Part shown: positions 1,206-15,026 of the stretch, piece by piece
Layout of the letters: each line of letters opens with the position of its first letter
Position numbering within the stretch: position 1 is the stretch's first letter
Virus record (IMG/VR): IMGVR_UViG_3300045988_131075
Span: 1 to 29,670 of that record
Strand: one strand, 5' to 3'
Origin: a virus
Length of the DNA: 29,670 nt
Translations under genes and position numbers: made by a program
The notes under the pieces: generated by a model
Seen by the model: the letters and a program-made list of their open reading frames with translations, nothing else
Database searches by the model: none
Told to the model about the DNA's origin: nothing

Positions 1206-1211
1206 GAATAT

Positions 1212-2221: not shown

Positions 2222-2250
2222 GCGCCTGATTTTTTTTCAGGCGCTCCCCT
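2222..2250. terminator. Strong intergenic hairpin gggagcgcctga-T8-tcaggcgctccc between two minus-strand genes. Possibly a terminator or attenuator, but it has no clear distal T-run.
   Basis: A 12-bp perfect stem with a T8 loop. It lies immediately downstream of gene 2255..2632 and upstream of the promoter at 2178-2206. Confidence 0.4.
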
Positions 2251-2254
2251 TGAA

Positions 2255-2632
2255 TCAATGCGCCATGCGGAAGTAGGACTTGCGCTTGTCCACAATCTTT
2301 TCCACCGTGTCTGCGTCAATCATCTGGCGCAGAAGAGCGGAAACGCGCTGGTTGGTGAGGTCGCCCAGACCGTCCACATTCTTAATGAGGTCGGTCACGG
2401 TATACAGCTTGTCAGGATTCGCGGACAGCTCAGCAAAGATAATGTCCTTGTAGCCGTCGTTGGCAATCTGATTCGCGGTCGGCTTCTTATCACCGGCGTT
2501 CTTGCGAGACAGCAGGTCGATTTCGTGATTGATAAACTCAACCATAGCGGGGTCAGCCTGAACCTCGCTCATTTTGAGCAAAGCCTCGAAACGGTCGCGC
2601 TTGGTGAGCTTCTTAACAGTAGAAGTAGACAT
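2255..2632 (-). CDS. Paralog A of a duplicated 125-aa early protein. The C-terminal part (KLYTVTDLIK...RVSALLRQMIDADTV) could be a winged-helix-like DNA-binding fold.
   Basis: RBS AAAGGAATTGATACT-ATG is identical to that of paralog B. Promoter TTGACA(2707-2712 rc)-17-TATACT(2684-2689 rc). About 70% identity to 4668..5048. Confidence 0.7.
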   Translation of the reverse strand: MSTSTVKKLTKRDRFEALLKMSEVQADPAMVEFINHEIDLLSRKNAGDKKPTANQIANDGYKDIIFAELSANPDKLYTVTDLIKNVDGLGDLTNQRVSALLRQMIDADTVEKIVDKRKSYFRMAH

Positions 2633-2930
2633 AGTATCAATTCCTTTCTTTGGCGGTAGGTCGCTACCCTTTTGATATTATTAAGTATACCACATTTTAG
2701 AGGGCTTGTCAAGAGGTTTCGCAAACTTTTCACACGAATTACTACCCCGACCTGACGGATAATTTATTGTTTGTTGATTCAATCTATTTGTCAGCAAAAA
2801 TGCTTCGAGGATAATTGGTTCAATCAAACTCACTTTCACGTTCAACGTTTGGCTTTACAACGTGGTGTATTATGTTTTCTTCCTATACTTTCTCAAGGTC
2901 GCGCGCCCTCGGATTTCTTGGGCTACTCCC

Positions 2931-3290
2931 TCTTGACATTTTCTATTGTAGCACACTCGCTGGGATTTGTCAAGAAGTTTTCAAGAAAAAACTCATGAAT
3001 TTTTTCTTTTATCCCGTGCGTTCCGCTCCGAAGAGACCTTAACGTAATAGGTGAACGGTCTATTGCTACTTCCAACCGTAGCCCCACACCGACCTGTGGC
3101 TCAGGGGTTTCCCTCTTGACATTATTTATTGTAGCACTTTTCGCGCTACTTGTCAAGAGGGAATTTCAAATTTCTTTGAAAACGGGTCAGTTACCGAGTT
3201 ATCACACCCATCAGCGAAGCCGTTCGGCAATTCACTGTTCCCTCCTGACATTATCTATTATAGCAGATTGCCCACAGATTACAATTGACA
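2931..3290 (-). promoter_or_regulatory. Non-coding array of three palindromic promoter-like elements, E1 (2931-2975), E2 (3114-3160) and E3 (3243-3290). Each has the form cTCTTGACAtt-N6-ATTGTAGCA-N12-TTGTCAAGA. On the minus strand each reads as TTGACA-17-TGCTACAAT (E1, E2) or as a perfect extended -10 TGCTATAAT (E3).
   Basis: No ORF with an RBS lies within 2690-3340. The elements are spaced about 185 and 130 bp apart. The ORF-track 77-aa ORF at 2923..3156 is just a translation of these repeats. Confidence 0.6.
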
Positions 3291-3342
3291 AAATAACCAA
3301 ATTACGGGAAAAAATTTTCTTCACTTTTGGTCAACTTTTCTC

Positions 3343-3490
3343 TTGACAAAATTGGCGGGGCGTGGTATAATGGAAAATTCGGACCGCCACGTGCGCCAGC
3401 GGTCCGCCAATTTTATCACAAAAATCCGCGTTTGTCAATAGGCAAAATAGACAAAAAAAACTGCCCATTTTTGGGCAGTTTTTTATTTTA
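3343..3490. promoter_or_regulatory. Boundary module C2. It has a + promoter TTGACA(3343-3348)-17-TATAAT(3366-3371) with TG extension, and a GC hairpin cggaccgc-N12-gcggtccg (3380-3406). A minus promoter follows (-10 rc 3410-3415 with TG, -35 rc 3433-3438), then a bidirectional terminator (stem 3461-3478, T-run to 3484).
   Basis: All elements were read directly. The convergent promoters face each other across the hairpin. Confidence 0.75.
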
Positions 3491-3673
3491 GTCCAGCAGG
3501 TTAATCTCGCCAGGAATCCTAAAAGAATCCGCGTCCAGCGTGGAATTATAGTCCTCGGTAAAGAGTTCAATCATTCCACACTCTGCGCAGATAATATAGT
3601 CATGGTCGATTAAAATGCCCATGTGAGGGTCATTGTCATCAGGGACTACAAAAAGGACTTGTTTAGCGTTCAT
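3488..3673 (-). CDS. Small early protein of about 61 aa (MNAKQVLFVVPDDNDPHMGILIDHDYIICAECGMIELF...), with CxxC plus His and Asp residues that might bind metal.
   Basis: Start re-assigned to the ATG with AAGAGG 8 nt upstream. The gene ends inside the C2 terminator. The hairpin-embedded promoter at 3722-3750 is upstream. Confidence 0.6.
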   Translation of the reverse strand: MNAKQVLFVVPDDNDPHMGILIDHDYIICAECGMIELFTEDYNSTLDADSFRIPGEINLLD

Positions 3674-3750
3674 GTAAAACACCTCTTTCATTTGATACAT
3701 TGATTATACCATAGGGAATAGGACTTGTCAAGCCCTATTCCCTATTTTTT

Positions 3751-4527
3751 TTAGCTCATGTTTATCATGGGATTTTCCTTAATGTTTCGCATGAGCGCGC
3801 GCTGAAACTCGGTAGGCTTGGGGCGTTCCACCGTGGGAGTTTTGAAAAGGGACTTTTCCATTTCCTTGTGCTGTCGGACGCAATAGCGCAGAATCTCAAC
3901 TTCAATGAGGACATCTTCTAATCCCGTGTGGGATTCATCAAAACTGTCCTCGCCGCTGATAAAGCGATAGAGAATTTCTGCGGTGAAACGGAGCTGTCCG
4001 TTCTTGGTCTTGTAGCCGTTCTTTTCGCAATAGTCGCGGTAAGTGGGCATTTTGCCGATAACCTGACGTGCCATTTTCAACGTGTCCCAAATTTCGAGGT
4101 CGTAGGGGAAGAAATAGCGATACTTGCTTTTCGTGTCCCATCTTTGCGCGTTGTTACAGGCGTTAAGGTCGAACCGCATATTATGAGCGCAGACAAAAGA
4201 GCAGTTGTAGCGCTCGACACATTCGCAGAACGCAAGACGAATTTCGTAAAGGTCAGCCATAATGCGAGTGCCGTTTTGAATGTCCTCGACATAGCGGGGA
4301 ATCTTGTCGGCATAGTATGCGGACTGCATGAGGTCGCGCTCGTAGCAGAAAATGTCGCGATTCACAAAAGAATGAGTTTCATAAACATTTCCCTTGGAAT
4401 CAATGACCGCCCACCCAAAGTCGTAGGGCAATACATTTGACATATCCAGCTTATCGCCGTCCTGAATGGTGTTTGCGGTTTCCGTGTCCAGCATAATACC
4501 GTAGTTTCTGCGCCTATCAATACCCAT
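3751..4527 (-). CDS. DEDDh-family (DnaQ-like) 3'-5' exonuclease, 258 aa.
   Basis: Motif Exo I is IMLDTETAN. The C-terminal segment YRFISGEDSFDESHTGLEDV carries the His-x4-Asp of Exo III. Promoter TTGACA-17-TATACT, then the conserved 29-nt leader and AGGAGA RBS upstream (4540-4620). Confidence 0.7.
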   Translation of the reverse strand: MGIDRRRNYGIMLDTETANTIQDGDKLDMSNVLPYDFGWAVIDSKGNVYETHSFVNRDIFCYERDLMQSAYYADKIPRYVEDIQNGTRIMADLYEIRLAFCECVERYNCSFVCAHNMRFDLNACNNAQRWDTKSKYRYFFPYDLEIWDTLKMARQVIGKMPTYRDYCEKNGYKTKNGQLRFTAEILYRFISGEDSFDESHTGLEDVLIEVEILRYCVRQHKEMEKSLFKTPTVERPKPTEFQRALMRNIKENPMINMS

Positions 4528-4667
4528 TTTATCGTCTCCTATTGGAAAAGTAGATTGAGGTTTACCATCGTTCTCTCAACCTCTAAATATAGTATAGCAC
4601 TTTACTATTGGTTTGTCAATAGTTTTTTTGTGGGGCAGGGGATTTTTTTATCCCCTGCCCTTTTCCC

Positions 4668-5048
4668 TTATGCGCGGGAGAAGTAGGACTTGCGGTTGCC
4701 AACCGTCTTGACAACCGTGTCTGCGTCAATCATCTGACGCAGAAGAGCGGAAACGTGCTGGTTGGTATACTCCGCAAGCTTGGGAACGCCCTTGATGAGG
4801 TCGGTCACAGTATACAGCTTGTCGGGGTTTGCGGTCATCTCGTCCAGAATGACCTGCTTCACAGCGTCATTCTCCATCTGCTTGGCCGTGGGCTTCTTGT
4901 CGCCCGCGTTCTTTTTGACGAGCAGTTCAATCTCATGCTCGATGAACGCCACCATATCAGGATTTGCCTGAACCTCGCTCATTTTGAGCAGGGCCTCGAA
5001 ACGGTCACGCTTGGTGAGCTTCTTAGTCGTAGTAGTAGAAGTAGCCAT
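4668..5048 (-). CDS. Paralog B of the duplicated 125-aa early protein. It starts at MATSTTTTKKLTKRD, not at the ORF-track M 17 codons upstream, because the promoter -10 at 5101-5107 would put the TSS inside that extension.
   Basis: RBS aaaggaattgatact-ATG is identical to that of 2255..2632. The two proteins are about 70% identical with conserved ends. Confidence 0.7.
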   Translation of the reverse strand: MATSTTTTKKLTKRDRFEALLKMSEVQANPDMVAFIEHEIELLVKKNAGDKKPTAKQMENDAVKQVILDEMTANPDKLYTVTDLIKGVPKLAEYTNQHVSALLRQMIDADTVVKTVGNRKSYFSRA

Positions 5049-5545
5049 AGTATCAATTCCTTTCTGGTTTTTGAGACTGTCCTTGTCTATGGTAGTCATT
5101 ATATCATAGGCGGGAGTAGGTTGTCAATAGGTTTTTGCAATTTTTTTTAAGGGCGGTCGCGAGGTTTATTACTATACATCTTGTTTATACCTACCTTTAT
5201 CTATACTCTTAATCCAATTCAATTTACTAAGCCATTAGTTTTTAAGGCGGTGGACGAGCATTAGAAGTCATCTTGTTTTTACCTCTCTCATTTGATGTAT
5301 TCATTATACCCTACGTAGAACGATTTGTCAAGGGGTTTTTCAAACTTTTTTGAAAGTTTGTTCGGCACGCCACGCTTGGAACATTCCGTCGGATTTTGGT
5401 ATAATGGTCAAGGGAACTGCCTTTCCGCAGGTCTTACTCTTTCCTCCTGACATTATGTAGTATAGCAGATTGGTAATGATTTGTCTATTGGTAAAATGAC
5501 CAAATAACGGGAAAAAATAAAATTGAAATTTGTGCGAAATTTCTC

Positions 5546-5690
5546 TTGACAAAAATGCTGGCAGGGTGTATAATGGTAAATTCCGGCCGTAGCGCGCGGA
5601 AACGGCCGGCCCATTATATCACATTCAAGGAACTTTGTCAATAGTCAAAGTAAACAAAAAAATCTCCCCATTTTTGGGGAGATTTTCTTT
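5546..5690. promoter_or_regulatory. Boundary module C3. It has a + promoter TTGACA(5546-5551)-17-TATAAT(5569-5574), a hairpin ccggccg-N13-cggccgg (5583-5609) and a minus promoter (-10 rc ATTATA at 5613-5618 with TG, -35 rc at 5636-5641). It ends in a terminator, tctcccca-T5-ggggaga at 5664-5682 plus T-run.
   Basis: Direct reading. Confidence 0.75.
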
Positions 5691-5947
5691 TAGCCAATCA
5701 CATTGACTTCGGTTTTGACAGGCGTTACCATCTTGTCGCGCGAGAACTCGCGAACCTGACCCGTTTCAAGATTCACCGCGTAGCAATACTGCAAACCTCT
5801 CGACCGGACAAACGGCGTGTTGTTGTTGCTGTCAATTTTGAGATACATTCCCATACCGACCCCATTGGAGCGCAGAGTGGTGAACGTGCCACCGCTGGGA
5901 ATGTTGATAATTTGGAGCTGACCCTTAGTGCCAAAATTTACTTTCAT
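5690..5947 (-). CDS. Hypothetical early protein of about 85 aa (MKVNFGTKGQLQIINIPSGGTF...). Start set at the ATG with AAGAGGG 7 nt upstream.
   Basis: Ends at the C3 terminator. The following gene (5962..6276) lies 15 bp upstream. Confidence 0.55.
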   Translation of the reverse strand: MKVNFGTKGQLQIINIPSGGTFTTLRSNGVGMGMYLKIDSNNNTPFVRSRGLQYCYAVNLETGQVREFSRDKMVTPVKTEVNVIG

Positions 5948-5961
5948 TTTTATTCCCTCTT

Positions 5962-6276
5962 TCAAAATTCTTCTAAAAAGTGAATCGGCTTATGGTTTGG
6001 TCTAAAAAATGCCATTCCCTCGGTATAAAGAGAATTAAACAAATCTGCGGACACTTCAAACCATTCCGTGCCGCTAATGCGATTGCCTAACTCACTTAAA
6101 GTCAGATGACAAGAATTTTCCATGTCTCGACTTCCAGCGCAAGTGCTACGCATTATTGCTTTTGGATTATGGCTATAATAGCTTTTACGACGCTTTGCAA
6201 GGTTTTTAGTGCCGTCAGAATAGCCAACTTTAACCAAATGGCTATTGGTTAAATTATCCATCATCAAATACAGCAT
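5962..6276 (-). CDS. T5orf172-domain (GIY-YIG-like) protein, 104 aa.
   Basis: N-terminal LVKVGYSDGTKNLAKRRKSY and the C-terminal TEWFEV motif are typical of the T5orf172 family. RBS GAGG 5 nt before the ATG. Confidence 0.5.
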   Translation of the reverse strand: MLYLMMDNLTNSHLVKVGYSDGTKNLAKRRKSYYSHNPKAIMRSTCAGSRDMENSCHLTLSELGNRISGTEWFEVSADLFNSLYTEGMAFFRPNHKPIHFLEEF

Positions 6277-6283
6277 TTTTACC

Positions 6284-6427
6284 TCACAGCAGATGGATAT
6301 TAACCCATTCTGCGGTCACAAGTCCGATTTCCTTAGAGACAACCGTTTCATAGCGGTAATTACCGCCATCAGTTCGTCCGGTCACTTTGGCGAGAACGCC
6401 AAGAGTAAGCCAAAAATAAGGCATCAT
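6284..6427 (-). CDS. Small protein of about 47 aa (MMPYFWLTLGVLAKVTGRTDGGNYRYETVVSKEIGLVTAEWVNIHLL). The ORF-track 97-aa ORF is an N-terminally over-extended version that overlaps the upstream gene.
   Basis: RBS AAAGGGG 8 nt upstream of the ATG. The preceding gene ends 6 bp upstream. Confidence 0.45.
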   Translation of the reverse strand: MMPYFWLTLGVLAKVTGRTDGGNYRYETVVSKEIGLVTAEWVNIHLL

Positions 6428-6432
6428 TTTTA

Positions 6433-6639
6433 TCACCCCTTTGGACCGACCGTAAAGAGCGAACGCAGAAGCAACAGAACAATCCAAATTGCGAGTGCCA
6501 GCTTCCACGAGAACACAATGACGAAAGTGCCGATTGCGGTGATACCGAGGGCGGGAAGAAGCCAACAGAGAAGCCAAACCAGACCAGAGGTGAGCAGGAA
6601 CGAAATTGCGAGAGACAGCAGAATCAAAAGAACAAACAT
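6433..6639 (-). CDS. Small polytopic membrane protein, 68 aa, almost entirely hydrophobic.
   Basis: Promoter, then the conserved leader (gaatacatcaaatgaaaaggaga) and RBS upstream at 6640-6700. The -35 lies in the gggctttgtcaagccc palindrome. Confidence 0.6.
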   Translation of the reverse strand: MFVLLILLSLAISFLLTSGLVWLLCWLLPALGITAIGTFVIVFSWKLALAIWIVLLLLRSLFTVGPKG

Positions 6640-6694
6640 TTTATTTTCTCCTTTTCATTTGATGTATTTATTATACCATTGGAGTAGGGCTTTG

Positions 6695-7195
6695 TCAAGC
6701 CCTTTTCTCCAAAAGTTCCGAAAGTTTTTCGATAATGTTTACTGCGGTCGGGTCAATGGTAGCGCCCAAGTGCCAACCATTCCGAACTTTTTCATTATCG
6801 TCAACCAAGATGGACACGTCATAGCGGTCGCGCACGCTGTCGGCCTTAGTTGCGCCATACTGGACGCCATGGAAGTGGTCATAGTGGAAGCCCTGTTCTT
6901 CAAGCCATGCGCGCTTTGCTTCACGCACGAGGCTTTTGTATTCCTCGCTCGAATCCTTAGAGAGCCAAGTAATGATATTGATTTCCCAGCCCTCGGCGCG
7001 GAGAAGTTCGCAAACCTCATTCAATTCAGCCATGTCGCACATGGGAACGGCAGTTCGATAGGGCTTAGGATTTTCCGAACGGAGAAGCGCAAGCCAATCC
7101 TTGACGCCGTAGAGGTCAGCGATAGTGCCGTCCATGTCAAAGTTGATGGAGCGCCGACGAGCCACAACGTGGGACTTGATGTAAGTGATTTTCAT
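6695..7195 (-). CDS. HAD-superfamily 5'(3')-deoxyribonucleotidase-like protein, 166 aa.
   Basis: HAD motif I is FDMDGTIAD (DxDGT). Motif IV is ILVDDN near the C-terminus. The size and layout match the NT5C-type phage nucleotidases. Confidence 0.6.
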   Translation of the reverse strand: MKITYIKSHVVARRRSINFDMDGTIADLYGVKDWLALLRSENPKPYRTAVPMCDMAELNEVCELLRAEGWEINIITWLSKDSSEEYKSLVREAKRAWLEEQGFHYDHFHGVQYGATKADSVRDRYDVSILVDDNEKVRNGWHLGATIDPTAVNIIEKLSELLEKRA

Positions 7196-7201
7196 AGACG
7201 T

Positions 7202-7444
7202 TTATCTCTCCCCATTATCGTCTTTTTTAATAGCAACGCAGTCGTTTGACAGGTCATAGCAGAGCATAACCATAGTGTCAATAGCTTCGCGGTTGAAGCA
7301 AGTGCCGTTAGCTTCAAATGTTGCGGTGTCCTGATGGTTGAGTTCAGCACGAATACTTTCAAGAATTTCACTCATGCGGTCGATAGTATCGAGTTCTTCA
7401 TCAGTGAATGTGATGATGGCTTTCGAGCAAGAGTTGATAATCAT
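7202..7444 (-). CDS. Hypothetical acidic early protein, 80 aa.
   Basis: Consensus promoter TTGACA-17-TATAAT upstream (7455-7510 rc) and GGGG RBS. Stop and start abut the neighbouring genes. Confidence 0.55.
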   Translation of the reverse strand: MIINSCSKAIITFTDEELDTIDRMSEILESIRAELNHQDTATFEANGTCFNREAIDTMVMLCYDLSNDCVAIKKDDNGER

Positions 7445-7535
7445 TTTGGTTTACCCCTTTCCTTTACTATACTTGTATTATACCACTATTGGATTTGCTT
7501 GTCAAGTGTTTTTTTCAAAATTTTCGCGGTCTTTC

Positions 7536-7679
7536 TCAATACACGAAAGATAAGAAATTAAGCAAAATCAGCACAGGAATAGCGTATACGATATTGAAAT
7601 AGTCCCACCCGAGACTTTCACAGGAATAAGCAAAAATAAAGCCAAAAACGAGGCCGAAAATGCCGATTAAAATAATCAT
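7536..7679 (-). CDS. Small membrane peptide of about 47 aa (MIILIGIFGLVFGFIFAYSCESLGWDYFNIVYAIPVLILLNFLSFVY). Its start ATG overlaps the stop of the upstream gene (ATGA).
   Basis: AGAGGA 6 nt upstream of the ATG. This is the C-terminal part of the ORF-track ORF 7536..7721. Confidence 0.45.
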   Translation of the reverse strand: MIILIGIFGLVFGFIFAYSCESLGWDYFNIVYAIPVLILLNFLSFVY

Positions 7680-7939
7680 TCTAAATCCTCTATATGACCA
7701 TAGTGTTCGTTGATATGCCATTCAAGATAGGTATTAGTCGCAATCTGAATTTCTCTATCCAGCCAGTCATAAAAATCCTCGGGGTCGCGGGCCATGCGTT
7801 CATCAATGATATCTTTGAGAGAAACGCGGTGAGCAAGGAATTCCGAAATATCAAGAGAATCCATAGAAGAAAGAAGTTCTTCCACACATTCTCCGCGAGT
7901 AGAGAACTTTTCAGTAGAAAAATCGTGAGTGTAATACAT
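7676..7939 (-). CDS. Hypothetical acidic early protein, 87 aa.
   Basis: Promoter TAGACA-17-TATACT (7960-8000 rc) and GGGG RBS. The longer overlapping ORF 7690..8124 reads through this promoter and is rejected. Confidence 0.55.
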   Translation of the reverse strand: MYYTHDFSTEKFSTRGECVEELLSSMDSLDISEFLAHRVSLKDIIDERMARDPEDFYDWLDREIQIATNTYLEWHINEHYGHIEDLE

Positions 7940-8057
7940 TGTTTGTATCCCCTTTCTTTATGGTAATTATAGTATAGCAGATTATTACATTCTTGTCTAT
8001 TGGTAAAATGCCCAAATTCGGGAAAATAATTAGTTGGACTTTTGGCTAAATTTCCTA

Positions 8058-8200
8058 TTGACAAATTGCTGAGATGGTGGTATAATGGAATTTCCGGCCG
8101 TGGCATGCGCGAACGGCCGGCCATTTTATCACACTATTGGATTTTTGTCAATAGGCAAAATAGCTAAAAAAATGAGGTGAAAATTCACCTCAAATTTTAT
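8058..8200. promoter_or_regulatory. Boundary module C4. It has a + promoter TTGACA(8058-8063)-17-TATAAT(8081-8086) with TGG extension, a hairpin ccggccg-N13-cggccgg (8094-8120) and a minus promoter (-10 rc 8123-8128, -35 rc 8146-8151). The terminator is gaggtgaaaattcacctc at 8174-8191.
   Basis: Direct reading. Confidence 0.75.
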
Positions 8201-8376
8201 CTGTGATAACTGGTAGTAATGGTTTTGAAAATCTGATAGATATTTTCATCTTCCATCAACTTTTGGATAAAAGCATCAGCTTCTTCTTCGGAATCAAAAC
8301 TAACTCGATTATCATAATACTGGTCCCAAGGATTTTTACCGCTGTAATCAACCCGGAATGTCTTTTCAATTTCCAT
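8197..8376 (-). CDS. 59-aa acidic protein missed by the 60-aa ORF threshold (MEIEKTFRVDYSGKNPWDQYYDNRVSFDSEEEADAFIQKLMEDENIYQIFKTITTSYHR).
   Basis: RBS AAAAGGGG 8 nt upstream. Hairpin-embedded promoter at 8410-8447. The gene ends at the C4 terminator. Confidence 0.55.
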   Translation of the reverse strand: MEIEKTFRVDYSGKNPWDQYYDNRVSFDSEEEADAFIQKLMEDENIYQIFKTITTSYHR

Positions 8377-8451
8377 TTTATTTGCCCCTTTTCTTTGATG
8401 CTTTTATTGTAGCACAAGGGACTTGTTTTGTCAAGCCCCTTGTGCTATTTT

Positions 8452-8904
8452 TTAACGTTCAGACACAATGCTAAGGTAGCGGACAATCATGTCCATTTCG
8501 CAACCCATGTCTTGCTGGTCGCAAACCGCATAACCCACAAGGTCGCCGTCCGCACAAATCGGGTAAACACCATAAGTGTTATTGAAAACAAATGGCTTTC
8601 TTTTAAAATCCCACTGGGTCGAAACATAAGGCGGAAAGTTTTCCATACCCCGCAGTTTCACGGTAGTATCATAGATTGCGATGGGACGCAGACCGGAATT
8701 CGATGCCATTGTAATAGCGGTTCGCAGAGCTTCTTCGGTCAGCGAACCAAGCACCGAATATCTCTTGAAGCAAACGCAGTCGTTGTCTTCAATGAAGATT
8801 TCAAGCGGGTCGCCCTCGCGAATCTTCAAAGTCCGGCGAATCTCTTTCGGAATGACCACACGTCCAAGGTCATCAATTCTGCGAACAATACCAGTAGCTT
8901 TCAT
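8452..8904 (-). CDS. SpoVT/AbrB-family transcriptional regulator, 150 aa, with an N-terminal swapped-hairpin AbrB domain.
   Basis: The N-terminus MKATGIVRRIDDLGRVVIPKEIRRTLKIREGDPLEIF is near-identical in pattern to Bacillus AbrB and SpoVT N-domains. Promoter and conserved leader upstream. Confidence 0.75.
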   Translation of the reverse strand: MKATGIVRRIDDLGRVVIPKEIRRTLKIREGDPLEIFIEDNDCVCFKRYSVLGSLTEEALRTAITMASNSGLRPIAIYDTTVKLRGMENFPPYVSTQWDFKRKPFVFNNTYGVYPICADGDLVGYAVCDQQDMGCEMDMIVRYLSIVSER

Positions 8905-8968
8905 TTTAATTTTCCCCTTTCACTTGATACGTTAAGTATAGCAGAACAAAAGGCTTTTGTCAAGCCCT

Positions 8969-9451
8969 TTATTCAAGATTTTTGCTTTCTGCGACAAAAT
9001 ATTTTGCTTCATATTGATTGGCAATAGCCTTGACTTTTGCACTTTCCTTTTGGGTCGCGCAGTAAAAATTGAAAAGCGTATGTTTATCGCTTAATTTAAT
9101 GTAAGAGTGTGGAACGTCATGCAAGCCAAAGTCAATGGTATTAGTGTATCTTGTCGGGACAGTCAGCTCGACTTTCCATAGCTTGTCTTTGCGGGCTTTC
9201 TCTTCAATCCACTTGACAAAGTAGACGCCTACGAAATTACAAACAGCAGTAATAGCCATTTTCAACCAGATAGGCATACCGTCCGCGGAAGTCAGCACAA
9301 TCACATAGGAATAAAAACCATAAGTGATAGCATTGATAAGAGATGCGCTAATTTTTCCGCCGTTGACAGTCAAAATGCTTTTGATAGTTGACAGAACCAC
9401 ATTTACCGCCGTGCAAAGCGCGAACAGAAGAATTGTATTCATTATTATCAC
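8969..9451 (-). CDS. Membrane protein of 160 aa with about 3 TM segments in the N-terminal half.
   Basis: ORF with RBS AAGGAAAGGG. A promoter is upstream at 9480-9505. Confidence 0.55.
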   Translation of the reverse strand: MIIMNTILLFALCTAVNVVLSTIKSILTVNGGKISASLINAITYGFYSYVIVLTSADGMPIWLKMAITAVCNFVGVYFVKWIEEKARKDKLWKVELTVPTRYTNTIDFGLHDVPHSYIKLSDKHTLFNFYCATQKESAKVKAIANQYEAKYFVAESKNLE

Positions 9452-9515
9452 CCTTTCCTTTTTCTATTATAATAATATCATATTATAATAGAAATGTCAA
9501 TAGAGAATTTTTAAT

Positions 9516-9674
9516 TTACTCTTTTAATTTTTCTAATAGAGCATCAGCACATTCATAGCTGGTACTTCTGCGGTCGCACTCGTTGGACAAAGGACAACAC
9601 GCGCAGTCGTTAAAGGTCTCTACCCAAGCGCGCAACCAGTCAATCAAGCGCAAAGTATTAACTTCCTCATACAT
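9516..9674 (-). CDS. Cys-rich 52-aa protein (MYEEVNTLRLIDWLRAWVETFNDCACCPLSNECDRRSTSYECADALLEKLKE) that is translationally coupled: its ATG sits inside the 3' end of the upstream gene.
   Basis: AAAGGAG 10 nt upstream. An ATGTATGA overlap with the stop of 9667..10014. Confidence 0.4.
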   Translation of the reverse strand: MYEEVNTLRLIDWLRAWVETFNDCACCPLSNECDRRSTSYECADALLEKLKE

Positions 9675-10014
9675 TGTTATCATTCTCCTTTACTCGGACA
9701 AAAAAGACCTTGTTATAGATTTTTGTTGCTTTAAGGTCAATCCAGAAATACACGTTTCCGCATACTCGATAGATTTTACAAGTCTCTCCGCTAACCTTTT
9801 TGACTTCCTCAAATTTCTCTGGTGTTGTAGGGTGGAAAACCGTCAGTTTGAGAAATATGCAATAGAAAGCCAAAGGAACGAAGCCGATAATCATAGCAAT
9901 CCATGCGAGAACATCAGTTAAAGTGTTTTCCCATTCACACTACTCATCGGTAATTGTAGCGAACGCAATACCTACGCAAAACGCGAGAATTAACCAATAC
10001 CATGCAACCATCAT
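9667..10014 (-). CDS. Two-TM membrane protein. It is 115 aa if the in-frame TAG at 9940-9942 is read through; otherwise it is a 24-aa peptide plus the ORF-track 75-aa ORF.
   Basis: The only strong RBS (GGGGG 6 nt before the ATG) is at the upstream start at 10014. The ORF-track start at 9894 has no Shine-Dalgarno site. The two ORFs are in the same frame and separated only by TAG. Promoter TAGACA-17-TAAGAT upstream. Confidence 0.45.
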
Positions 10015-10118
10015 TTTGTTCCCCCTTTATTTGTTGTATACATCTTACCACATTATAGGATTTTTGTCTATTGGCATTTTACACAAAAATTCGTGCGAAA
10101 ATTTGTTGAACTTACCTC

Positions 10119-10240
10119 TTGACAAAAAACTCGGCGCGCCACAATCGTCCGCGCGCCGCCAATTTTATCACATTCAAGGAACTTTGTCAATAGTGAAAGT
10201 AAACAAAAAAAATCACCCAAATTGGGTGATTTTTCATTTA
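10119..10240. promoter_or_regulatory. Boundary module C5. It has a + TTGACA (10119-10124) directly abutting the hairpin cggcgcgc-N11-gcgcgccg (10132-10158), with no + strand -10. A minus promoter follows (-10 rc 10162-10167, -35 rc 10185-10190), then a terminator tcacccaaattgggtga (10213-10229) plus T-run.
   Basis: Compared with C2-C4, about 23 bp between the + -35 and the hairpin are missing. Confidence 0.7.
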
Positions 10241-10414
10241 GTTTCCTACGGCTTCGAGGTCGACGAGAATGGGAACGAGCTTGTCTTCAAGAAGCGCGAC
10301 ACGCTCAATCATTTCATTTGCTGCTGTTCCGCCCGACGGGTATCTCTTCTGAATGCCGTATCGAGCCATTCTGCACACCGTTTCAACAACCTCGCTCAGT
10401 TTCTCATTCTTCAT
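10238..10414 (-). CDS. Small protein of about 58 aa (MKNEKLSEVVETVCRMARYGIQKRYPSGGTAANEMIERVALLEDKLVPILVDLEAVGN).
   Basis: GGAG 9 nt upstream of this ATG. The ORF-track start 5 codons upstream lacks an RBS. Confidence 0.5.
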   Translation of the reverse strand: MKNEKLSEVVETVCRMARYGIQKRYPSGGTAANEMIERVALLEDKLVPILVDLEAVGN

Positions 10415-10526
10415 TTTTCTTATCTCCATTCAATTTATTTTTTGGAAAGGGTGGCGGTTGTTTCAGGCACAACCGCCAAAGCCATAGGAAAGGGGGAGAA
10501 AAAACACGAACAAAAGTTCGGTTTTG

Positions 10527-10775
10527 TCAAGGGATAATCAGTTCCGCATCGTAGACAGGTCGAACCATGCAGGGCGCGCTGAAGCAGTCAAGATTGTAAG
10601 TGTCCAAATTGAGAGCGTTCCATTTTTCTGCGCCGGTATCTTCATCAACCACAGACGCAGTTTTGATGTAATAGACGTTTCCGGAAGCGGGGTCTTGAAA
10701 AATCATACCCTCGAGGAGGTCTTCAAATGCAACCATTTTGTTGCTATGCTTAACAGTAATTTTCATTTCATTCAC
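10527..10775 (-). CDS. Hypothetical protein of 82 aa or slightly shorter, overlapping the upstream gene by ATGA.
   Basis: ORF coupled to 10772..11125. A weak hairpin plus T-run is downstream at about 10500-10520 (minus strand). Confidence 0.5.
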   Translation of the reverse strand: MNEMKITVKHSNKMVAFEDLLEGMIFQDPASGNVYYIKTASVVDEDTGAEKWNALNLDTYNLDCFSAPCMVRPVYDAELIIP

Positions 10776-11125
10776 CCTTTATAATAGTATTTGTAAGCCC
10801 ATTCGATGATTTCATGACTTGTGGTAGTCCATTCCTCTTTGGGGCTATCGAACTTTTCCGCATACTTTTTGATGTAGTTATTATACTCCATGCGTGCGGT
10901 GTCGTATGCTCCAATAGCCACAATTAAGGCGTGCTTCGCTTCTTCGGCATCAGAGACGGCTTTCTTGCGGTCGGGGCAGTCAGGATAGAGGTTAATCACC
11001 CCTACGCGCGTAATGACTTGCCTTGTCTTTTCATAAAGGCGGTCGCGCGTTTCCCATACTTCATAGAGCTCATCATCTGCACGTTTTTCATAAGGGTTGA
11101 AAGGCTTCTTTTTCTTACCGAACAT
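10772..11125 (-). CDS. Hypothetical protein of about 117 aa (MFGKKKKPFNPYEKRADDELYEVWETRDRLYEK...). The ORF-track N-terminal extension runs into the upstream gene and is rejected.
   Basis: AAAAGGAG about 11 nt upstream of the ATG. Overlaps the stop of 11115..11453. Confidence 0.5.
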   Translation of the reverse strand: MFGKKKKPFNPYEKRADDELYEVWETRDRLYEKTRQVITRVGVINLYPDCPDRKKAVSDAEEAKHALIVAIGAYDTARMEYNNYIKKYAEKFDSPKEEWTTTSHEIIEWAYKYYYKG

Positions 11126-11453
11126 TTTTCTTTTTCTCCTTTTCCTGTTTATTCCACATTCTATCAAAGAACGCATTTGCGAGAACACGCTTGTAAAGGT
11201 TGTCAGGCATGGGGCGCTCGCCGTGCTTGTTTCTCCAAATCGCGGTGATTTTATCAATATCCGCGATATAGGCTGTAATGAGTGTGCCGTCCTTGGCGCT
11301 ACGAATAAGAAGAATACCGGTTGTAGTGATAGTGTAGAGAACATCGTCCTCAACGCTGTCGATATACGGTTCGCCGATTCCTACATTATCGTAGATGAAG
11401 AGCAGGCGGTCAATGCGGTCTTGCGTGGCGTGTTTTGACATTTTGATAAGCAT
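11115..11453 (-). CDS. Hypothetical protein of 112 aa.
   Basis: AAGAGG 8 nt upstream of the ATG. Extended -10 TGGTATAAT upstream (11468-11480 rc). Confidence 0.55.
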   Translation of the reverse strand: MLIKMSKHATQDRIDRLLFIYDNVGIGEPYIDSVEDDVLYTITTTGILLIRSAKDGTLITAYIADIDKITAIWRNKHGERPMPDNLYKRVLANAFFDRMWNKQEKEKKKNVR

Positions 11454-11514
11454 TTGTTTTACCTCTTTCTTTTCCTCTTGGATTGATTATATTATACCAT
11501 GCGGAAGGGCTTTT

Positions 11515-11550
11515 TGGAAAAAGAGGGAAAAATTTTCCCTCTTTATTTAT
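11515..11550. terminator. Bidirectional terminator agaggga-aaaatttt-tccctct with a flanking A-run and T-run.
   Basis: Downstream of the minus gene 11547..11819. The hairpin is at 11522-11542. Confidence 0.55.
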
Positions 11551-11819
11551 CCCCAATAGATTGAAAGAATCTTGTCAATGTAGCTGGCTTTATAGCCATA
11601 ATTCTGCATAATATCTTTGCAAGCCTGCTTGACCCTCTTGTCATTTATTGAAGCAAGAGAACATTCGTAAAGTGTTTCTCCCGTTCCGGCCACACGCTCA
11701 ATTTCTGGCATGATGTGGTCTTCAATGAACGCACGCGCAAGGGCATTATTTTTAGCTTGGATTTCTTTGCGAACTTCCTCGGCTTTGCGCGTCATTTCAT
11801 AAGCATATTTAATTTCCAT
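11547..11819 (-). CDS. Hypothetical protein of 90 aa.
   Basis: Promoter TTGACA-17-TACAAT sits in the hairpin gcatataggg/ccctatatgc (11852-11895). RBS AAAGGGAG. Confidence 0.6.
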   Translation of the reverse strand: MEIKYAYEMTRKAEEVRKEIQAKNNALARAFIEDHIMPEIERVAGTGETLYECSLASINDKRVKQACKDIMQNYGYKASYIDKILSIYWG

Positions 11820-11897
11820 GGTGTTTCTCCCTTTCCTTTATTGTATCTTTATTGTAGCATATAGGGCTTGTTTTGTCAAGCCCTATATGCAATTTTT

Positions 11898-12206
11898 TTA
11901 GCAATAGGCGAGATTCCCGCGTGCCCAGCCATATACGCTGATTTGATTGCACGCCTTGCCAATTTCAAGCGCCTGCTTTTTGGTCTGCACCCTCTTGGAC
12001 TTGTCAACATAATAGATGCCGTTCGCAAGCCATACACCGCAGTTTCCGCCGAAGCCCTTAACCGCATTGATAGCTTCGCGGGCGGTCTTGCACTCAACGC
12101 CGTTGGTAGCGACCTGCCAACCGGACTTGTAGTTGACTTTCTTGCCATATTTGAGGGTCATGCCGTCGTTTTCAGCGAGCTTGCGAATAGAACGAATGTT
12201 AATCAT
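11898..12206 (-). CDS. Hypothetical protein of about 102 aa (MINIRSIRKLAENDGMTLKYGKKVNYKSGWQVATNG...), with the start re-assigned.
   Basis: AAAGGGA 7 nt before this ATG. Promoter TAGACA-17-TATACT upstream. The ORF-track 156-aa version starts upstream of that promoter. Confidence 0.5.
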   Translation of the reverse strand: MINIRSIRKLAENDGMTLKYGKKVNYKSGWQVATNGVECKTAREAINAVKGFGGNCGVWLANGIYYVDKSKRVQTKKQALEIGKACNQISVYGWARGNLAYC

Positions 12207-12334
12207 GTTGTTATCCCTTTCCGGTTTGGTAGGTTTTCCTTCCCTTACTGTGATTATAGTATAGCACCGATTCGGGATTCTGTCTATTGACATTATGCAC
12301 AAACTTTCGTCATAAAAATTGTTGAACTTGCCTA

Positions 12335-12455
12335 TTGACACAAAATTCCGGCCGCGCCTGGCGTGCACGGCCGGCCGATTATATCACCAAGTTTTGAAAT
12401 TGTCAATAGGCAAAATATACAAAAAAATCTCCCCATTTTTGGAGAGATTTTTAAT
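12335..12455. promoter_or_regulatory. Boundary module C6. It has a + TTGACA (12335-12340) abutting the hairpin ccggccg-N13-cggccgg (12348-12374) and a minus promoter (-10 rc ATTATA at 12378-12383 with TG, -35 rc at 12401-12406). The terminator is tctcccca-T5-ggagaga (12428-12447).
   Basis: Like C5, it lacks the + strand -10. Confidence 0.7.
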
Positions 12456-12498
12456 TCAAAAAATTTAATTTTAACCATCAACATAAATGATAAGAACA

Positions 12499-12711
12499 TC
12501 ATCTTTGGCTTTCAAACCGCTGACAGGCAAATCCCAGCACCCATTCTTCGCTTACGCCCAAAACATCACCATTCAGAGTCATGCGACCTTTGCGGTCTTT
12601 GAGATAGCGCCCGCAAGTGTTTTCATTTATCACTTCAATGCCGTTCCCCTCATAGAACATCAGTGCGCCTTTTACCAGACCAATCACATTTTTAACCATG
12701 CCCAAAGTCAT
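12499..12711 (-). CDS. Hypothetical protein of about 70 aa (MTLGMVKNVIGLVKGALMFYEGNGIEV...).
   Basis: AAAGAGG 8 nt upstream. Promoter TTGACT-17-TATACT. Ends 45 bp from the C6 terminator. Confidence 0.55.
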   Translation of the reverse strand: MTLGMVKNVIGLVKGALMFYEGNGIEVINENTCGRYLKDRKGRMTLNGDVLGVSEEWVLGFACQRFESQR

Positions 12712-12820
12712 TTTATCAACCTCTTTCGTTTTTAATGTCGTTCCCTTGGAACAATTATAGTATAGCACAAGGTGTAGCAAAAGTCAACTTAAATTTTGGG
12801 ATTACCAATAGATAAAATGT

Positions 12821-12867
12821 ATAAAAATTCGGCAGGATTTTGTGTATCCTGCCGAATTTTTTTTATT
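12821..12867. terminator. Bidirectional terminator ggcaggat-tttgtgt-atcctgcc followed by T8.
   Basis: Stem at 12831-12853, with A/T runs on both sides. Confidence 0.6.
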
Positions 12868-13057
12868 CTTCCCAACTTTCGATGACTTCGCCGGTCATTG
12901 CATCGATGATGTCAACCGAGAGGACGTTGTCTGCGTCCATGACCTTCTGCCCGAGGGCATATGCGTTTTCCTGTCCCGCGACAGACACTTCATAGCGATA
13001 GCGGTTGTTATCGCCAGCCTTGTAATTGTAGTAGTTGACAGAAACAATAAATGACAT
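12863..13057 (-). CDS. Hypothetical protein of 64 aa.
   Basis: RBS AAAGGGGA. Promoter TTGACA-16/17-TATAAT upstream (13090-13130). Confidence 0.6.
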   Translation of the reverse strand: MSFIVSVNYYNYKAGDNNRYRYEVSVAGQENAYALGQKVMDADNVLSVDIIDAMTGEVIESWEE

Positions 13058-13161
13058 TTGGCTTATCCCCTTTCTTTTTATACTCTTATTATACCATAGA
13101 TTCAGGATTTGTCAATAGGTTTTTGAAAAAAGTTTGAAAAAAAATAAGGGCGTTTCCGCCC

Positions 13162-13419
13162 TTATTCTTCATAAATAATAATATTATTTTGTAGCAGTTT
13201 CACGCGAGAATCTTCACAAAAGTGATAGGTAAAACTCACGGAGAGGTGTTTGAGAAATTCGCGTCTCCATGTGCGGGACTTCGGCTCTAATTCAAAGAGA
13301 ATGTAAAGCGTTTCTTCTAACCGGTCGAGGAAGTTTTCAGTGTCCGCGACGTTGAACTTACCCGCGAATTTCGGAATAGGATTAGAAGTCCCAACAGTAA
13401 TAATGTTGTAAGTTGTCAT
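13162..13419 (-). CDS. Hypothetical protein of 85 aa.
   Basis: Conserved leader plus AAGGAG 8 nt upstream. Promoter TTGACA-17-TATAAT (13440-13475 rc). Confidence 0.6.
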   Translation of the reverse strand: MTTYNIITVGTSNPIPKFAGKFNVADTENFLDRLEETLYILFELEPKSRTWRREFLKHLSVSFTYHFCEDSRVKLLQNNIIIYEE

Positions 13420-13506
13420 GGAAAAATCTCCTTTTCATTTGATGCTTTTATTATACATGATAGTGTGGAACTTGTCAATACTTAAAATAGAAAAAAGAGA
13501 AGTTTT

Positions 13507-13611
13507 TCAACTTCTCTTTTTCAGTTTCTTTTCTGCCCATTCAATGAGCGCACCCACGGCGATTGTACCGGTATAAATGAAAAGTAAAACTAAACCATCA
13601 TGTAGACTCAT
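13507..13611 (-). CDS. Alternative model, gene 2 of 2: a 34-aa single-TM peptide (MSLHDGLVLLFIYTGTIAVGALIEWAEKKLKKRS).
   Basis: GGAGG 9 nt upstream of the ATG. Same frame and stop as the ORF-track 76-aa ORF 13507..13737. Confidence 0.4.
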   Translation of the reverse strand: MSLHDGLVLLFIYTGTIAVGALIEWAEKKLKKRS

Positions 13612-13612
13612 T

Positions 13613-13741
13613 TTAATATTCCTCCACATACTCTGTAAAAACAAGCTCCCAGTCAGGGCCAAGATCCGGAGCTTTGCAGTATCGCGACTGTCGAATGTCA
13701 TGCTCATTAGTGATTTTGTTGATAAACTCGAATTCATACAT
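13613..13741 (-). CDS. Alternative model, gene 1 of 2: a 42-aa acidic protein (MYEFEFINKITNEHDIRQSRYCKAPDLGPDWELVFTEYVEEY).
   Basis: AAAGGAGA about 10 nt upstream of this ATG (14 nt for the ORF-track ATG in another frame). Its TAA is followed after 1 nt by the ATG of gene 2. Confidence 0.4.
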   Translation of the reverse strand: MYEFEFINKITNEHDIRQSRYCKAPDLGPDWELVFTEYVEEY

Positions 13742-13830
13742 TTTTTATTATCTCCTTTTCTTTACTGTACCAATAGTATAGCAGATAACAGGGTATTTGT
13801 CAATACCATTTATAAAAAAATGTACGAGGT

Positions 13831-14127
13831 TTAATCCTCGTACATTTCCATTAACGATTTGATTTTTTCGATTGTATTTTCAATTTCTTCTACATAGTCG
13901 GCCTGTTCCTCACTTGCGCGCATTGCCTGTTCATATGCGTCATAGATAGCTTCACACTGTTCGCGGGTGTAGTCTTCTTCTGGAGCGTGTTCCATGGTGA
14001 CGACTGCCGTCCAAGCGAGCGTTTCCTTATCGTCAAGGTCATCGGCTTTTTCCGTGGCAGTGGTAAGCTCATGTTCGAGGCGCGTCTTTTCGAGCGAGAG
14101 GGTCTTGAGAAAATCCTTGTTAGTCAT
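13831..14127 (-). CDS. Acidic coiled-coil protein of about 98 aa (MTNKDFLKTLSLEKTRLEHELTTATEKADDLDDKE...).
   Basis: The ORF-track start is the ATG inside the conserved leader (caaATGaaaaggaga). The real start is 8 codons downstream, after that RBS. Confidence 0.6.
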   Translation of the reverse strand: MTNKDFLKTLSLEKTRLEHELTTATEKADDLDDKETLAWTAVVTMEHAPEEDYTREQCEAIYDAYEQAMRASEEQADYVEEIENTIEKIKSLMEMYED

Positions 14128-14328
14128 TGCGGTGTATCTCCTTTTCATTTGATGCCTTTATCATACCACTTCTGGACTGAATGTCAATAGGTTTTTGAAA
14201 AAAATATTTATTCATCAGGGCTGTATAAATATTCATGTATAAATATTCATTTTCGGGTGTATAAAGGCGACTGGCATAATGCACAAAATGGTTTCAAAAT
14301 TTTTGTGCAATATAACTATTGCAAAACT

Positions 14329-14355
14329 CGGCGCGCTGCGACCCACAGCGCGCCG
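14329..14355. promoter_or_regulatory. Orphan copy (C7) of the module GC hairpin, cggcgcgc-N11-gcgcgccg. It has no associated promoter or terminator.
   Basis: Same stem as C5, with a different loop. Flanked by AT-rich tandem repeats. Confidence 0.55.
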
Positions 14356-14382
14356 GCCAAATGCATATGTATGATTATTCAT

Positions 14383-14440
14383 GTATATTCATTGTATATT
14401 CATTGTATATTCATTGTATATTCATTGTATATTTATTCAT
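14383..14440. repeat. Tandem 11-bp repeat gtatattcatt, 4 perfect copies plus a variant. A second pair of 14-bp repeats, tgtataaatattca x2, is at 14222-14249.
   Basis: Direct reading. Confidence 0.8.
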
Positions 14441-14450
14441 ACATAATATG

Positions 14451-14484
14451 CAAAAATAGAGAGAGACTTAATAAGCCTCTCTCC
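14451..14484 (-). terminator. Intrinsic terminator for the minus-strand operon: hairpin gagagag-N11-ctctctc, followed on the minus strand by a T-run.
   Basis: The stop codon of 14468..14830 lies in the hairpin loop. Confidence 0.55.
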
Positions 14485-14830
14485 ACACCTTGATTATTTC
14501 ATCATCTGCTATATCATCTGTGTCATTGTCGTTTATCCACAAAAGCAGAAAATCATTATCATCAATGGTCATATTCTCAACTTCCCATTGGTTGCCACGT
14601 TCGTCCAGTAGCGTGATGGTGTTACCATTTCGGGAAACGACCTCTGCACCGATAAAGCGTATGCTTCCTCTCTCTGTGCCAGCGCCACACCATTCATCTA
14701 ATGCGGTGAGGTCGTAGGACTGGGGCGCTTCCTCACAGGCTTCCGCGGTTGTGTGGTCGTGAAATCCGAAGAAAGACACGGAGAGAATGATGGCAATGGC
14801 CATGGTGATGATTTTGGAAACGTTTTTCAT
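14468..14830 (-). CDS. Secreted or membrane-anchored protein of 120 aa with an N-terminal signal/TM segment (MKNVSKIITMAIAIILSVSFFGF).
   Basis: AAGAGG 9 nt upstream of the ATG. Hydrophobic N-terminus followed by an acidic domain. Confidence 0.6.
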   Translation of the reverse strand: MKNVSKIITMAIAIILSVSFFGFHDHTTAEACEEAPQSYDLTALDEWCGAGTERGSIRFIGAEVVSRNGNTITLLDERGNQWEVENMTIDDNDFLLLWINDNDTDDIADDEIIKVWREAY

Positions 14831-14852
14831 TTTGTTTTACCTCTTTCTTACT

Positions 14853-14996
14853 TTATAGGTTAGTAGCGATAGTGACAACAGCAATAAGCATGAGCGTGCT
14901 TGAGACAGCTTTGCCTACATTCTTGCTATCTATGGCATAGACAAAATTATATGCGCTTATAGCGGTAAGCACAATAATAGCGGCAATGATAGACAT
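14853..14996 (-). CDS. 47-aa membrane peptide (MSIIAAIIVLTAISAYNFVYAIDSKNVGKAVSSTLMLIAVVTIATNL).
   Basis: GGGGAG 8 nt upstream of the ATG. Lies between two larger genes with about 25-bp spacers. Confidence 0.45.
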   Translation of the reverse strand: MSIIAAIIVLTAISAYNFVYAIDSKNVGKAVSSTLMLIAVVTIATNL

Positions 14997-15026
14997 GGCA
15001 TATGCTCCCCTCTTTGAGCGAGTGGG

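Follow-up and report, generated by a model that had tools for sequence, protein, structure and literature searches.

In Bacillus subtilis, an endospore-former, SpoVT is encoded on the chromosome, and its gene is transcribed in the forespore from a sigma-G promoter; bacterial SpoVT autoregulates. AbrB, which shares the N-terminal fold, has an N-terminal domain followed by a C-terminal multimerisation domain, in about 94 amino acids in total. Dependence on sigma-G has also been reported for SpoVT of C. difficile, and it is unknown whether the GAF domain of SpoVT binds any ligand (PMC11237016). Sporulation regulators occur in phages too. Schwartz et al. (2023) reported truncated spo0A homologues without the sensing (receiver) domain in gut phages, sigF/sigG-like sigma factors, and spoVT (K04769), which is listed among the sporulation genes enriched in phages of spore-formers (PMC10294663). 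Here, we analyse a gene of 150 codons at 8452-8904 on a stretch of viral DNA of 29,670 nucleotides (IMG/VR record IMGVR_UViG_3300045988_131075, positions 1 to 29,670, hereafter the window). Sequence comparison and structure modelling indicate that it encodes a phage-borne derivative of SpoVT, in which the N-terminal DNA-binding head is kept and the C-terminal GAF domain is trimmed. The gene and its two domains are as follows.

8452..8904, minus strand: coding sequence of the short SpoVT-like protein (150 amino acids), from the ATG at 8904-8902 to the stop codon TAA at 8454-8452.
8755..8904, minus strand: residues 1-50, SpoVT-type swapped-hairpin (AbrB/MazE/SpoVT) domain, by Pfam, NCBIfam, PDB and Foldseek.
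8455..8736, minus strand: residues 57-150, reduced GAF domain, by hhalign, AlphaFold2 and Foldseek.

The N-terminal domain is identified by sequence as a SpoVT-type swapped-hairpin head, for which DNA binding is predicted. It matches Pfam PF04014 with 40.1 bits (cut-off 24.7) and NCBIfam TIGR01439 with 44.3 bits (cut-off 28.3), and all the features tested for membership of the AbrB/MazE/SpoVT superfamily were found. The top sequence match in the PDB is B. subtilis SpoVT (2w1t, E-value 7.5e-23), with 76.6 bits for the N-terminal domain, versus 52 for AbrB and 40 for Abh; the AbrB chains cover residues 1-49 only. Residues 1-37 differ from B. subtilis SpoVT at a single position, a Lys/Arg change, and residues 1-38 share 94.7% identity with the consensus of 79 bacterial SpoVT proteins. 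The basic residues R8, R9, R15, K20, R23 and R24 are all present; among 44 sequences of the short family, R15 and R23 are invariant, and R8 and R9 are conserved in at least 90%. R8, R15, R23 and R24 (AbrB numbering) we take to be the DNA-contact residues. AbrB, Abh and the small AbrB-like proteins of Bacillota phages resemble the protein in the N-terminal fold and in these arginine positions, but the C-terminal domain of AbrB is not of the GAF type. In the AlphaFold2 monomer model the N-terminal domain has a lower predicted local distance difference test score (pLDDT, 52-84), as would be expected for an obligate dimer. Foldseek aligns the modelled domain to the SpoVT N-domain 2ro5 (root-mean-square deviation 2.3 A, 80% identity), and also to the AbrB N-domains 1yfb and 1z0r. 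The AbrB/SpoVT domain proposed in a first-pass annotation made from the letters of the window is thus borne out, and the profile search which that annotation suggested places the protein nearest to SpoVT, not in an unrelated family or with MazE.

The resemblance to SpoVT as a whole is incomplete. The SpoVT equivalog model TIGR02851 is matched with an E-value of 4.3e-28 and 98.4 bits, under its trusted cut-off of 235.9, so that the phage protein is to be called a derivative and not an equivalog; the alignment takes query residues 2-67 to model positions 1-66 of 180, and there is no full-length match to this model. HMMER gives a hint of a second weak stretch, query residues 109-133 against SpoVT 131-155. 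In a search of 1.84 billion representative proteins, many proteins of 139-160 amino acids align over the full length with 40-74% identity, and SpoVT proteins of about 180 amino acids align over the first 80 residues or so only.

When an alignment of 44 short proteins was compared with an alignment of 25 canonical SpoVT proteins by the profile-profile method hhalign, the two aligned end to end. The C-terminal domains alone, with the N-domain and the linker removed, align with 97.7% probability and an E-value of 1.9e-12, and the roughly 30 extra canonical residues fall between query residues ~86 and ~106. An AlphaFold2 model based on the alignment of short proteins has a mean pLDDT of 89 and a predicted template modelling score (pTM) of 0.80, the pLDDT being 93-97 across the C-terminal domain. 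The predicted elements of this domain are a helix (57-69), five strands (76-78, 82-86, 105-107, 111-118 and 121-129) and a closing helix (135-149). Among PDB structures, Foldseek ranks full-length SpoVT 2w1t_A first (E-value 2.9e-11, TM-score 0.67), and the next ranks are occupied by AbrB/SpoVT N-domains and by many GAF domains, including the isolated SpoVT C-domain 2w1r. Alignment and model together indicate that the C-terminal domain is a true but trimmed homologue of the SpoVT GAF domain, with 95 residues versus about 125, in which some 30 residues have been lost between strands 2 and 3. Its likeness to bacterial SpoVT (2w1t, 2w1r, 2ro5; TIGR02851) comprises the swapped-hairpin N-domain, the linker motif, and a homologous GAF-type C-domain with the same first and last helices and the strand motif P-I...G(D/E)..G. 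The lost segment is taken to be helical in canonical SpoVT. In its place stands a loop with the family consensus FP..VP..W, which reads FPPYVSTQW here; its residues P91 and W98 are kept by 70% of the short family. The deletion may remove a ligand pocket, as the alignment and the monomer model suggest. The first-pass annotation had described a C-terminal domain of about 100 amino acids, shorter than the GAF domain of SpoVT; the length agrees, and the fold prediction it recommended returned a confident GAF-like fold.

The short form is abundant. Exactly the same 150-residue protein was found on 68 contigs, and its cluster at 90% identity has 900 members. More than 40 clusters at 50% identity have the short form, all of them on viral contigs or on contigs of at most about 220 kb. 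Among the matches listed for IMG/VR viral contigs, the short forms have 133-158 amino acids and 41-99% identity, on contigs of 85-212 kb; in ten divergent clusters that were checked, the longest contigs measure 0.9-220 kb and are never chromosome-sized. One divergent cluster holds the GenBank entry DAH18101.1, 'MAG TPA: stage V sporulation protein T [Caudoviricetes sp.]'. When 185,579 bacterial species genomes were searched, the best 80 matches, mostly from gut Clostridia and Paenibacillus, were all canonical SpoVT proteins of 175-188 amino acids, with the exception of one of 161 amino acids, apparently cut short, and no close relative of the short form was among them. In these 80 matches the identity is 35-45% where the alignment enters the C-terminal domain, and identities of 54-68% cover residues 1-71 to 1-87 only. 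The phage protein is therefore unlike bacterial SpoVT both in length (150 versus 175-188 amino acids) and in identity, which is at most 45% over those alignments.

Among cultured phages (INPHARED), AbrB-like proteins of Paenibacillus, Bacillus and Listeria phages match only residues 1-50 to 1-61, with 54-76% identity (most 58-64%), and none matches the reduced GAF domain (hereafter mini-GAF); the lone record with a query coverage of at least 80% is a phage contig from faeces that has no annotation. The two parts of the short family are constrained to different degrees: the head has a mean identity of 86% to the bacterial SpoVT consensus, while the C-terminal domains have a mean pairwise identity of 21%. 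In a neighbour-joining tree, 53 of 54 short sequences lie apart from the canonical clade; the tree is star-like and influenced by gaps, and it is no basis for a single origin. That the short architecture is restricted to phages is well supported but not proven. Four IMG/VR contigs (L116, L118, L120 and L128) carry SpoVT genes of canonical length (178-181 amino acids), two of them with consensus sigma-A promoters upstream; whether these are phage genes or host DNA, they may be read either way.

The reading frame is that of a working gene. It is intact and free of in-frame TAG, and we judge the gene to be real because both domains are under purifying selection and the exact protein recurs on the 68 contigs. 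Between 14 close relatives (78 pairs, with a synonymous rate dS of about 0.38), codons 1-55 have a ratio of nonsynonymous to synonymous rates (dN/dS) of 0.07, and codons 56-150 have one of 0.19. The gene is present in a single copy, there being no second SpoVT-like gene in the window. Its expression signals and flanking repeats are listed below.

8914..8921, minus strand: ribosome-binding site GAAAGGGG, 9 nucleotides 5' of the ATG, kept in relatives.
8935..8963, minus strand: promoter of the sigma-A/sigma-70 type, TTGACA-17 nucleotides-TATACT with a TG extension, agreeing with the consensus at 11 of 12 positions.
8952..8966: short hairpin GGCTTGACAAAAGCC around the -35 box, with TTTTGTT coming after it on the minus strand.
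8411..8446: inverted repeat with 10-bp arms AGCACAAGGG / CCCTTGTGCT, directly past the stop codon of the SpoVT-like gene.

Most close relatives have the same promoter 59 nucleotides upstream of the SpoVT-like gene, and more distant phages of the lineage have similar promoters ahead of it. The promoter belongs to a family of promoter/5' untranslated region cassettes that is repeated before many early genes (repeat families D2, D3 and D5). In this the phage gene differs from bacterial spoVT, since it lies behind a promoter of the sigma-A type and is not chromosomal; no search was aimed at a sigma-G promoter. The hairpin at 8952..8966 is probably the terminator of the upstream gene for a membrane protein of 160 amino acids (8969-9451). 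The inverted repeat at 8411..8446 encloses the -35 box of the promoter of the next gene (8434..8406) and looks like a terminator, with a hairpin and a T run, on the plus strand only; its role is uncertain.

The window belongs to a phage of about 190 kb that reads TAG as a sense codon and comes from the human gut. Its right arm (17.3-29.7 kb, plus strand, G+C content about 31%) resolves into a tight row of long open reading frames only if TAG is read as sense, namely 352, 401, 580 (terminase), 559 (portal), 528, 305 and 375 amino acids. Over 17315-29670 there are 45 in-frame TAG codons, and all 11 stop codons are TAA. In the left arm (1-16960, minus strand, G+C content about 42%) there is no in-frame TAG, and the stop codons are 19 TAA and 12 TGA, with no TAG; the G+C content falls from about 42% to about 31% near 16 kb. 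The right arm matches the PHROG families of the terminase large subunit (phrog_2), of the portal (phrog_2739, E-value 8e-81) and of a capsid-region protein (phrog_4088). The capsid-region protein (368 amino acids) is 50% identical to its counterpart in phAss-1, about 40% to those of Enterococcus phages of about 140 kb, and 25-27% to those of large Bacillus phages. PhAss-1 is a TAG-recoded gut siphovirus with a predicted host in Clostridia/Eubacteriales (PMC10607447). Relatives of the window are contigs of 178-199 kb, and IMG/VR viral contigs reach 197 kb. No sign of a prophage was found: the best matches in the 185,579 species genomes include no close relative, and a search for relatives of 0.2-1 Mb gave a longest contig of 224,908 bp, which is still phage-sized. 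The large recoded gut-phage clades of Borges et al. (bioRxiv 10.1101/2021.08.26.457843) are alike in size and in their TAG-recoded late genes, a likeness that does not imply assignment to a clade. A zeta crAss-like phage, similar in size and recoding, was considered and rejected, as the capsid, portal and terminase match siphovirus-type proteins of phAss-1, Enterococcus and Bacillus phages.

Relatedness to the phages in INPHARED is seen at the protein level only; megablast of 25 kb of the window against that collection gave zero matches. A scan of the window found no tRNA and no suppressor tRNA, and Rfam at gathering thresholds gave nothing. The first gene of the late arm (17265-18373, plus strand) matches a PHROG annotated as sigma factor (phrog_5767, E-value 9e-55), with no match in Pfam; it contains two in-frame TAG codons, and ahead of it, at 17265-17293, lies a promoter that fits the sigma-A consensus perfectly, TTGACAAAA...GAGTATAAT. 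Such a gene could be transcribed early and be translated in full only after the code switch. The first-pass annotation's attribution of the window to a phage thus holds, by the terminase, portal and capsid genes and by the phage-sized relatives. Its guess of a Bacillota host gains indirect support, for the capsid is nearest to those of phAss-1, Enterococcus and Bacillus phages, and the nearest bacterial SpoVT proteins come from gut Clostridia.

Small genes without known families make up the left arm in one long array, and, with its standard code and sigma-A-type promoters, this arm looks like the early region that had been supposed. Next to the SpoVT-like gene lie the predicted membrane protein of 160 amino acids, upstream, and a protein of 59 amino acids, downstream. 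In 20 neighbours searched with Pfam and PHROGs, the only matches are a HAD/PNK-like phosphatase (6695-7195), a T5orf172 domain (5962-6276) and an exonuclease-like PHROG (3751-4527), and no sporulation gene was found among them. In the 37 related viral loci compared, the SpoVT-like gene has no constant adjacent gene, and the order of the genes about it shifts. The repeated elements of this region and of its junction with the right arm are the following.

~3670-14170 (for example 6636-6705, 8372-8441, 8901-8970 and 13416-13485), minus strand: promoter cassette, about 10 copies.
1092-1206, 3374-3488, 5577-5691, 8089-8203, 10126-10240 and 12342-12456: element of about 115 nucleotides, six copies at a spacing of 2.0-2.5 kb.
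~15971-16017: junction inverted repeat GATTGCACAAAG / CTTTTGTGCAATC.
16056-16077: junction perfect palindrome TTATTCATTCAAGAATGAATAA.
16159, 16206 and 16244: three iteron-like direct repeats of 28 nucleotides, TAAATCAATTTTCAATTTCAGATTACGA, in the junction.

Most left-arm genes are preceded by the cassette, TTGACA-17-TGnTAtAAT followed by CATCAAATGAAAAGGAG (repeat families D2, D3, D5, D8 and D15), which on the minus strand runs GGGCTTGACA...TGGTATAAT...CATCAAATGAAAAGGAG...ATG. About 10 copies hold the motif CATCAAATG between the -10 box and the ribosome-binding site. In several cassettes the -35 box is situated in the loop of a hairpin (8411-8446, 11848-11898 and 3700-3750), whose stem sequence varies by copy and which is terminator-like on the plus strand. 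Each of the elements of about 115 nucleotides has a GC-rich 8-bp hairpin with compensatory changes in four of the eight pairs and, on the minus strand, both a promoter (TTGACA...TGTGATAAAAT) and another hairpin that resembles a terminator; in three copies a consensus promoter on the plus strand opposes it (3343, 5546 and 8058). These elements have no Rfam match; they may represent stem-loops at the 5' ends of early transcripts, or else small convergent RNAs. The arm junction (15968-16280) could be an origin or a regulatory region, and no link between its repeats and the SpoVT-like protein was found.

Some further observations concern the left arm. The left end of the window (1-160) is made of irregular tandem short repeats of the AAAATTGCGAGAGTGTG / AAAATTGCTATT type (repeat family D7). 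A pair of paralogous genes without known family (2255-2632 and 4668-5099, minus strand; 125 and 143 amino acids) shows 74-89% nucleotide identity over about 350 nucleotides. The T5orf172 gene (5962-6276, minus strand) also matches MUG113, and it is present in some close relatives and absent from three (L085, L090 and L093), while in one relative an HNH/NUMOD4 endonuclease gene is inserted nearby (L171, 3146-3760). We suspect that mobile endonuclease-type genes move within the early region.

Then, what would a phage do with a trimmed SpoVT? The first-pass annotation had conjectured either a rewiring of transition-state or sporulation regulons or an early-late switch of the phage's own. A model in which the protein acts on host SpoVT/AbrB-type sites has, in our estimate, about an even chance of being right. 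Because the gene combines a host-type promoter and ribosome-binding site with the standard code, we infer that it is expressed early by unmodified host machinery, the vegetative RNA polymerase and ribosomes making the protein directly after infection and before the code switch. The protein would assemble as SpoVT does, with paired N-domains and with the retained first and last GAF helices driving higher-order assembly, and it would bind DNA without need of whatever signal the full GAF domain senses. Its most likely targets would be host SpoVT/AbrB-type operator sites, or else the host SpoVT/AbrB protein itself through mixed dimers. In this way the phage would overrule the control of late forespore or transition-state genes, and would block or exploit dormancy while it infects a spore-forming Clostridia host. 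A host-directed role is favoured because the head is held near the bacterial SpoVT consensus while the C-terminal domains drift: a regulator of phage operators alone could co-evolve with them, and one that recognises host sites or a host protein could not. The other phage AbrB-like regulators, at the identities given above, indicate that such proteins are not generally held to the SpoVT sequence. By analogy, the protein would parallel the truncated, receiver-less spo0A copies, and it resembles the phage-borne regulators of Schwartz et al. (2023) in that a phage has copied a sporulation transcription factor of the host and its sensing part is reduced.

Several points weigh against this host-directed model. 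The model can name neither a binding site nor a target gene nor a host. The normal action of SpoVT comes late, in the forespore and under sigma-G, and a mimic has no evident role in the vegetative cell. The host may not be a spore-former, and some of the phage's structural relatives infect Enterococcus, which does not sporulate. Conservation of the head could be due to a partner, or to a target in phage DNA, instead of host operators. TGGNA-type sites are not enriched, although this motif is a poor predictor. In addition, an alignment and a model of the monomer are all that speaks for the loss of the pocket, and the bacterial and viral scans cover the best or listed matches only, so that the restriction to phages is not exhaustive.

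The strongest competitor, a real possibility though a doubtful one, is that the protein binds phage promoters, either the early cassettes or the AT-rich junction, and shuts off early genes or times late ones, its likeness to SpoVT being ancestry only. Bacillota phages commonly encode small AbrB-domain proteins that bear the annotation of transcription regulators, bacterial SpoVT itself autoregulates, the gene lies within an early array that shares cassettes, the ten or so copies of CATCAAATG could be common operators, and the junction has palindromes and three direct repeats. A dedicated regulator, however, would be free to co-evolve, yet the head remains at 86-95% identity to the SpoVT consensus while the C-terminal domains have drifted to a pairwise identity of about 21%, whereas other phage AbrB-like proteins have drifted well below that. 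The search for TGGNA-type sites in the junction, advised by the first-pass annotation, lent no support (11 sites versus 8.0 +/- 2.8 expected), nor did paired sites in the whole window (1 versus 1.9 expected), and no motif tracking with the gene was found. Moreover, phAss-1, the relative by its capsid, is not among the 40 tblastn records listed, and none of 65 matching records is named 'Phage...'; therefore the gene does not seem to be part of the core switch of the wider group.

It is unlikely that the protein acts as a poison subunit, its host-identical head pairing with host SpoVT or AbrB/Abh and its trimmed GAF domain blocking tetramer assembly or the response to a signal. In its N-domain and its linker motif (K.YS..G.L) the protein barely differs from host SpoVT, the swapped-hairpin fold is an obligate intertwined dimer in AbrB and SpoVT (PDB 1yfb, 2ro5, 2w1t), and the short family keeps a loop of its own where the segment is deleted. 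But vegetative cells, in which the sigma-A promoter would be active, contain no host SpoVT, and the protein retains all the DNA-contact arginines, which a pure poison would not need. Very improbable, finally, is a MazE-type antitoxin of a phage toxin-antitoxin or defence module. It is suggested by names, since the shared Pfam domain PF04014 is called MazE_antitoxin and two PHROG families, 4681 and 36746, bear the annotation 'antitoxin from a toxin-antitoxin system'. We rejected this reading, MazE_antitoxin being the name of a superfamily domain only. As the first-pass annotation had noted, no cognate toxin is evident: Pfam and PHROGs detect no MazF/PemK, Doc, PIN or other toxin family among the neighbours, and PADLOC, applied to the protein together with nine of its neighbours, found nothing. 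The gene stands as a monocistronic unit between hairpins and is served by a promoter of its own, it has no fixed partner, since the neighbouring genes change from one relative to another, its C-terminal part is a folded GAF-like domain, as predicted, and not a short toxin-binding tail, and the NCBIfam MazE model scores far more weakly (E-value 7.8e-4) than the SpoVT model (4.3e-28).

The host-directed model can be extended into a bolder proposal. The mini-GAF SpoVT would then be a signal-blind regulator invented by phages, of single origin and spread through many large gut phages of 100-220 kb, which, expressed from a host-type promoter within minutes of infection, jams or seizes the SpoVT/AbrB dormancy programme of the host through its operators or mixed dimers, a general anti-dormancy or spore-hitchhiking device of the abundant TAG-recoded phages of gut Clostridia. 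Taken as a whole, we hold this to be rather unlikely.

The identity of the protein as a phage SpoVT is not new, since name-level GenBank annotations and the table entry of 2023 precede it. The entry DAU68643.1 ('stage V sporulation protein T', from a phage metagenome-assembled genome) falls into the same 90% cluster as the protein of the window, DAH18101.1 is a divergent member of the short family, and the UniProt entry A0A8S5PY96 (a phage protein of 137 amino acids, also named 'stage V sporulation protein T') is the top match in a library of viral structures. In the literature searched on SpoVT in phages, we found nothing on its domain architecture, the GAF deletion, the restriction to phages or its place in the standard-code early region of TAG-recoded phages, and the mini-GAF architecture of phages appears to be undescribed.

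Sporulation controls how spore-forming Clostridia, which rank among the major members of the gut microbiome, are transmitted and how they escape from phages. The gene described here probably enables a phage to interfere with the sporulation control of its host, a role suggested by its sequence, and the phage family is very common, a neighbouring gene being indexed in about 1,430 blocks of the assembly collection. If the protein acts on phage genes alone, it would be an ordinary early regulator of unusual ancestry. If it is a ligand-independent version of a late sporulation regulator, it would be a concrete, clonable candidate for how virulent phages handle host dormancy, and, as a natural deletion variant, it could help to reveal the function of the GAF domain of SpoVT.

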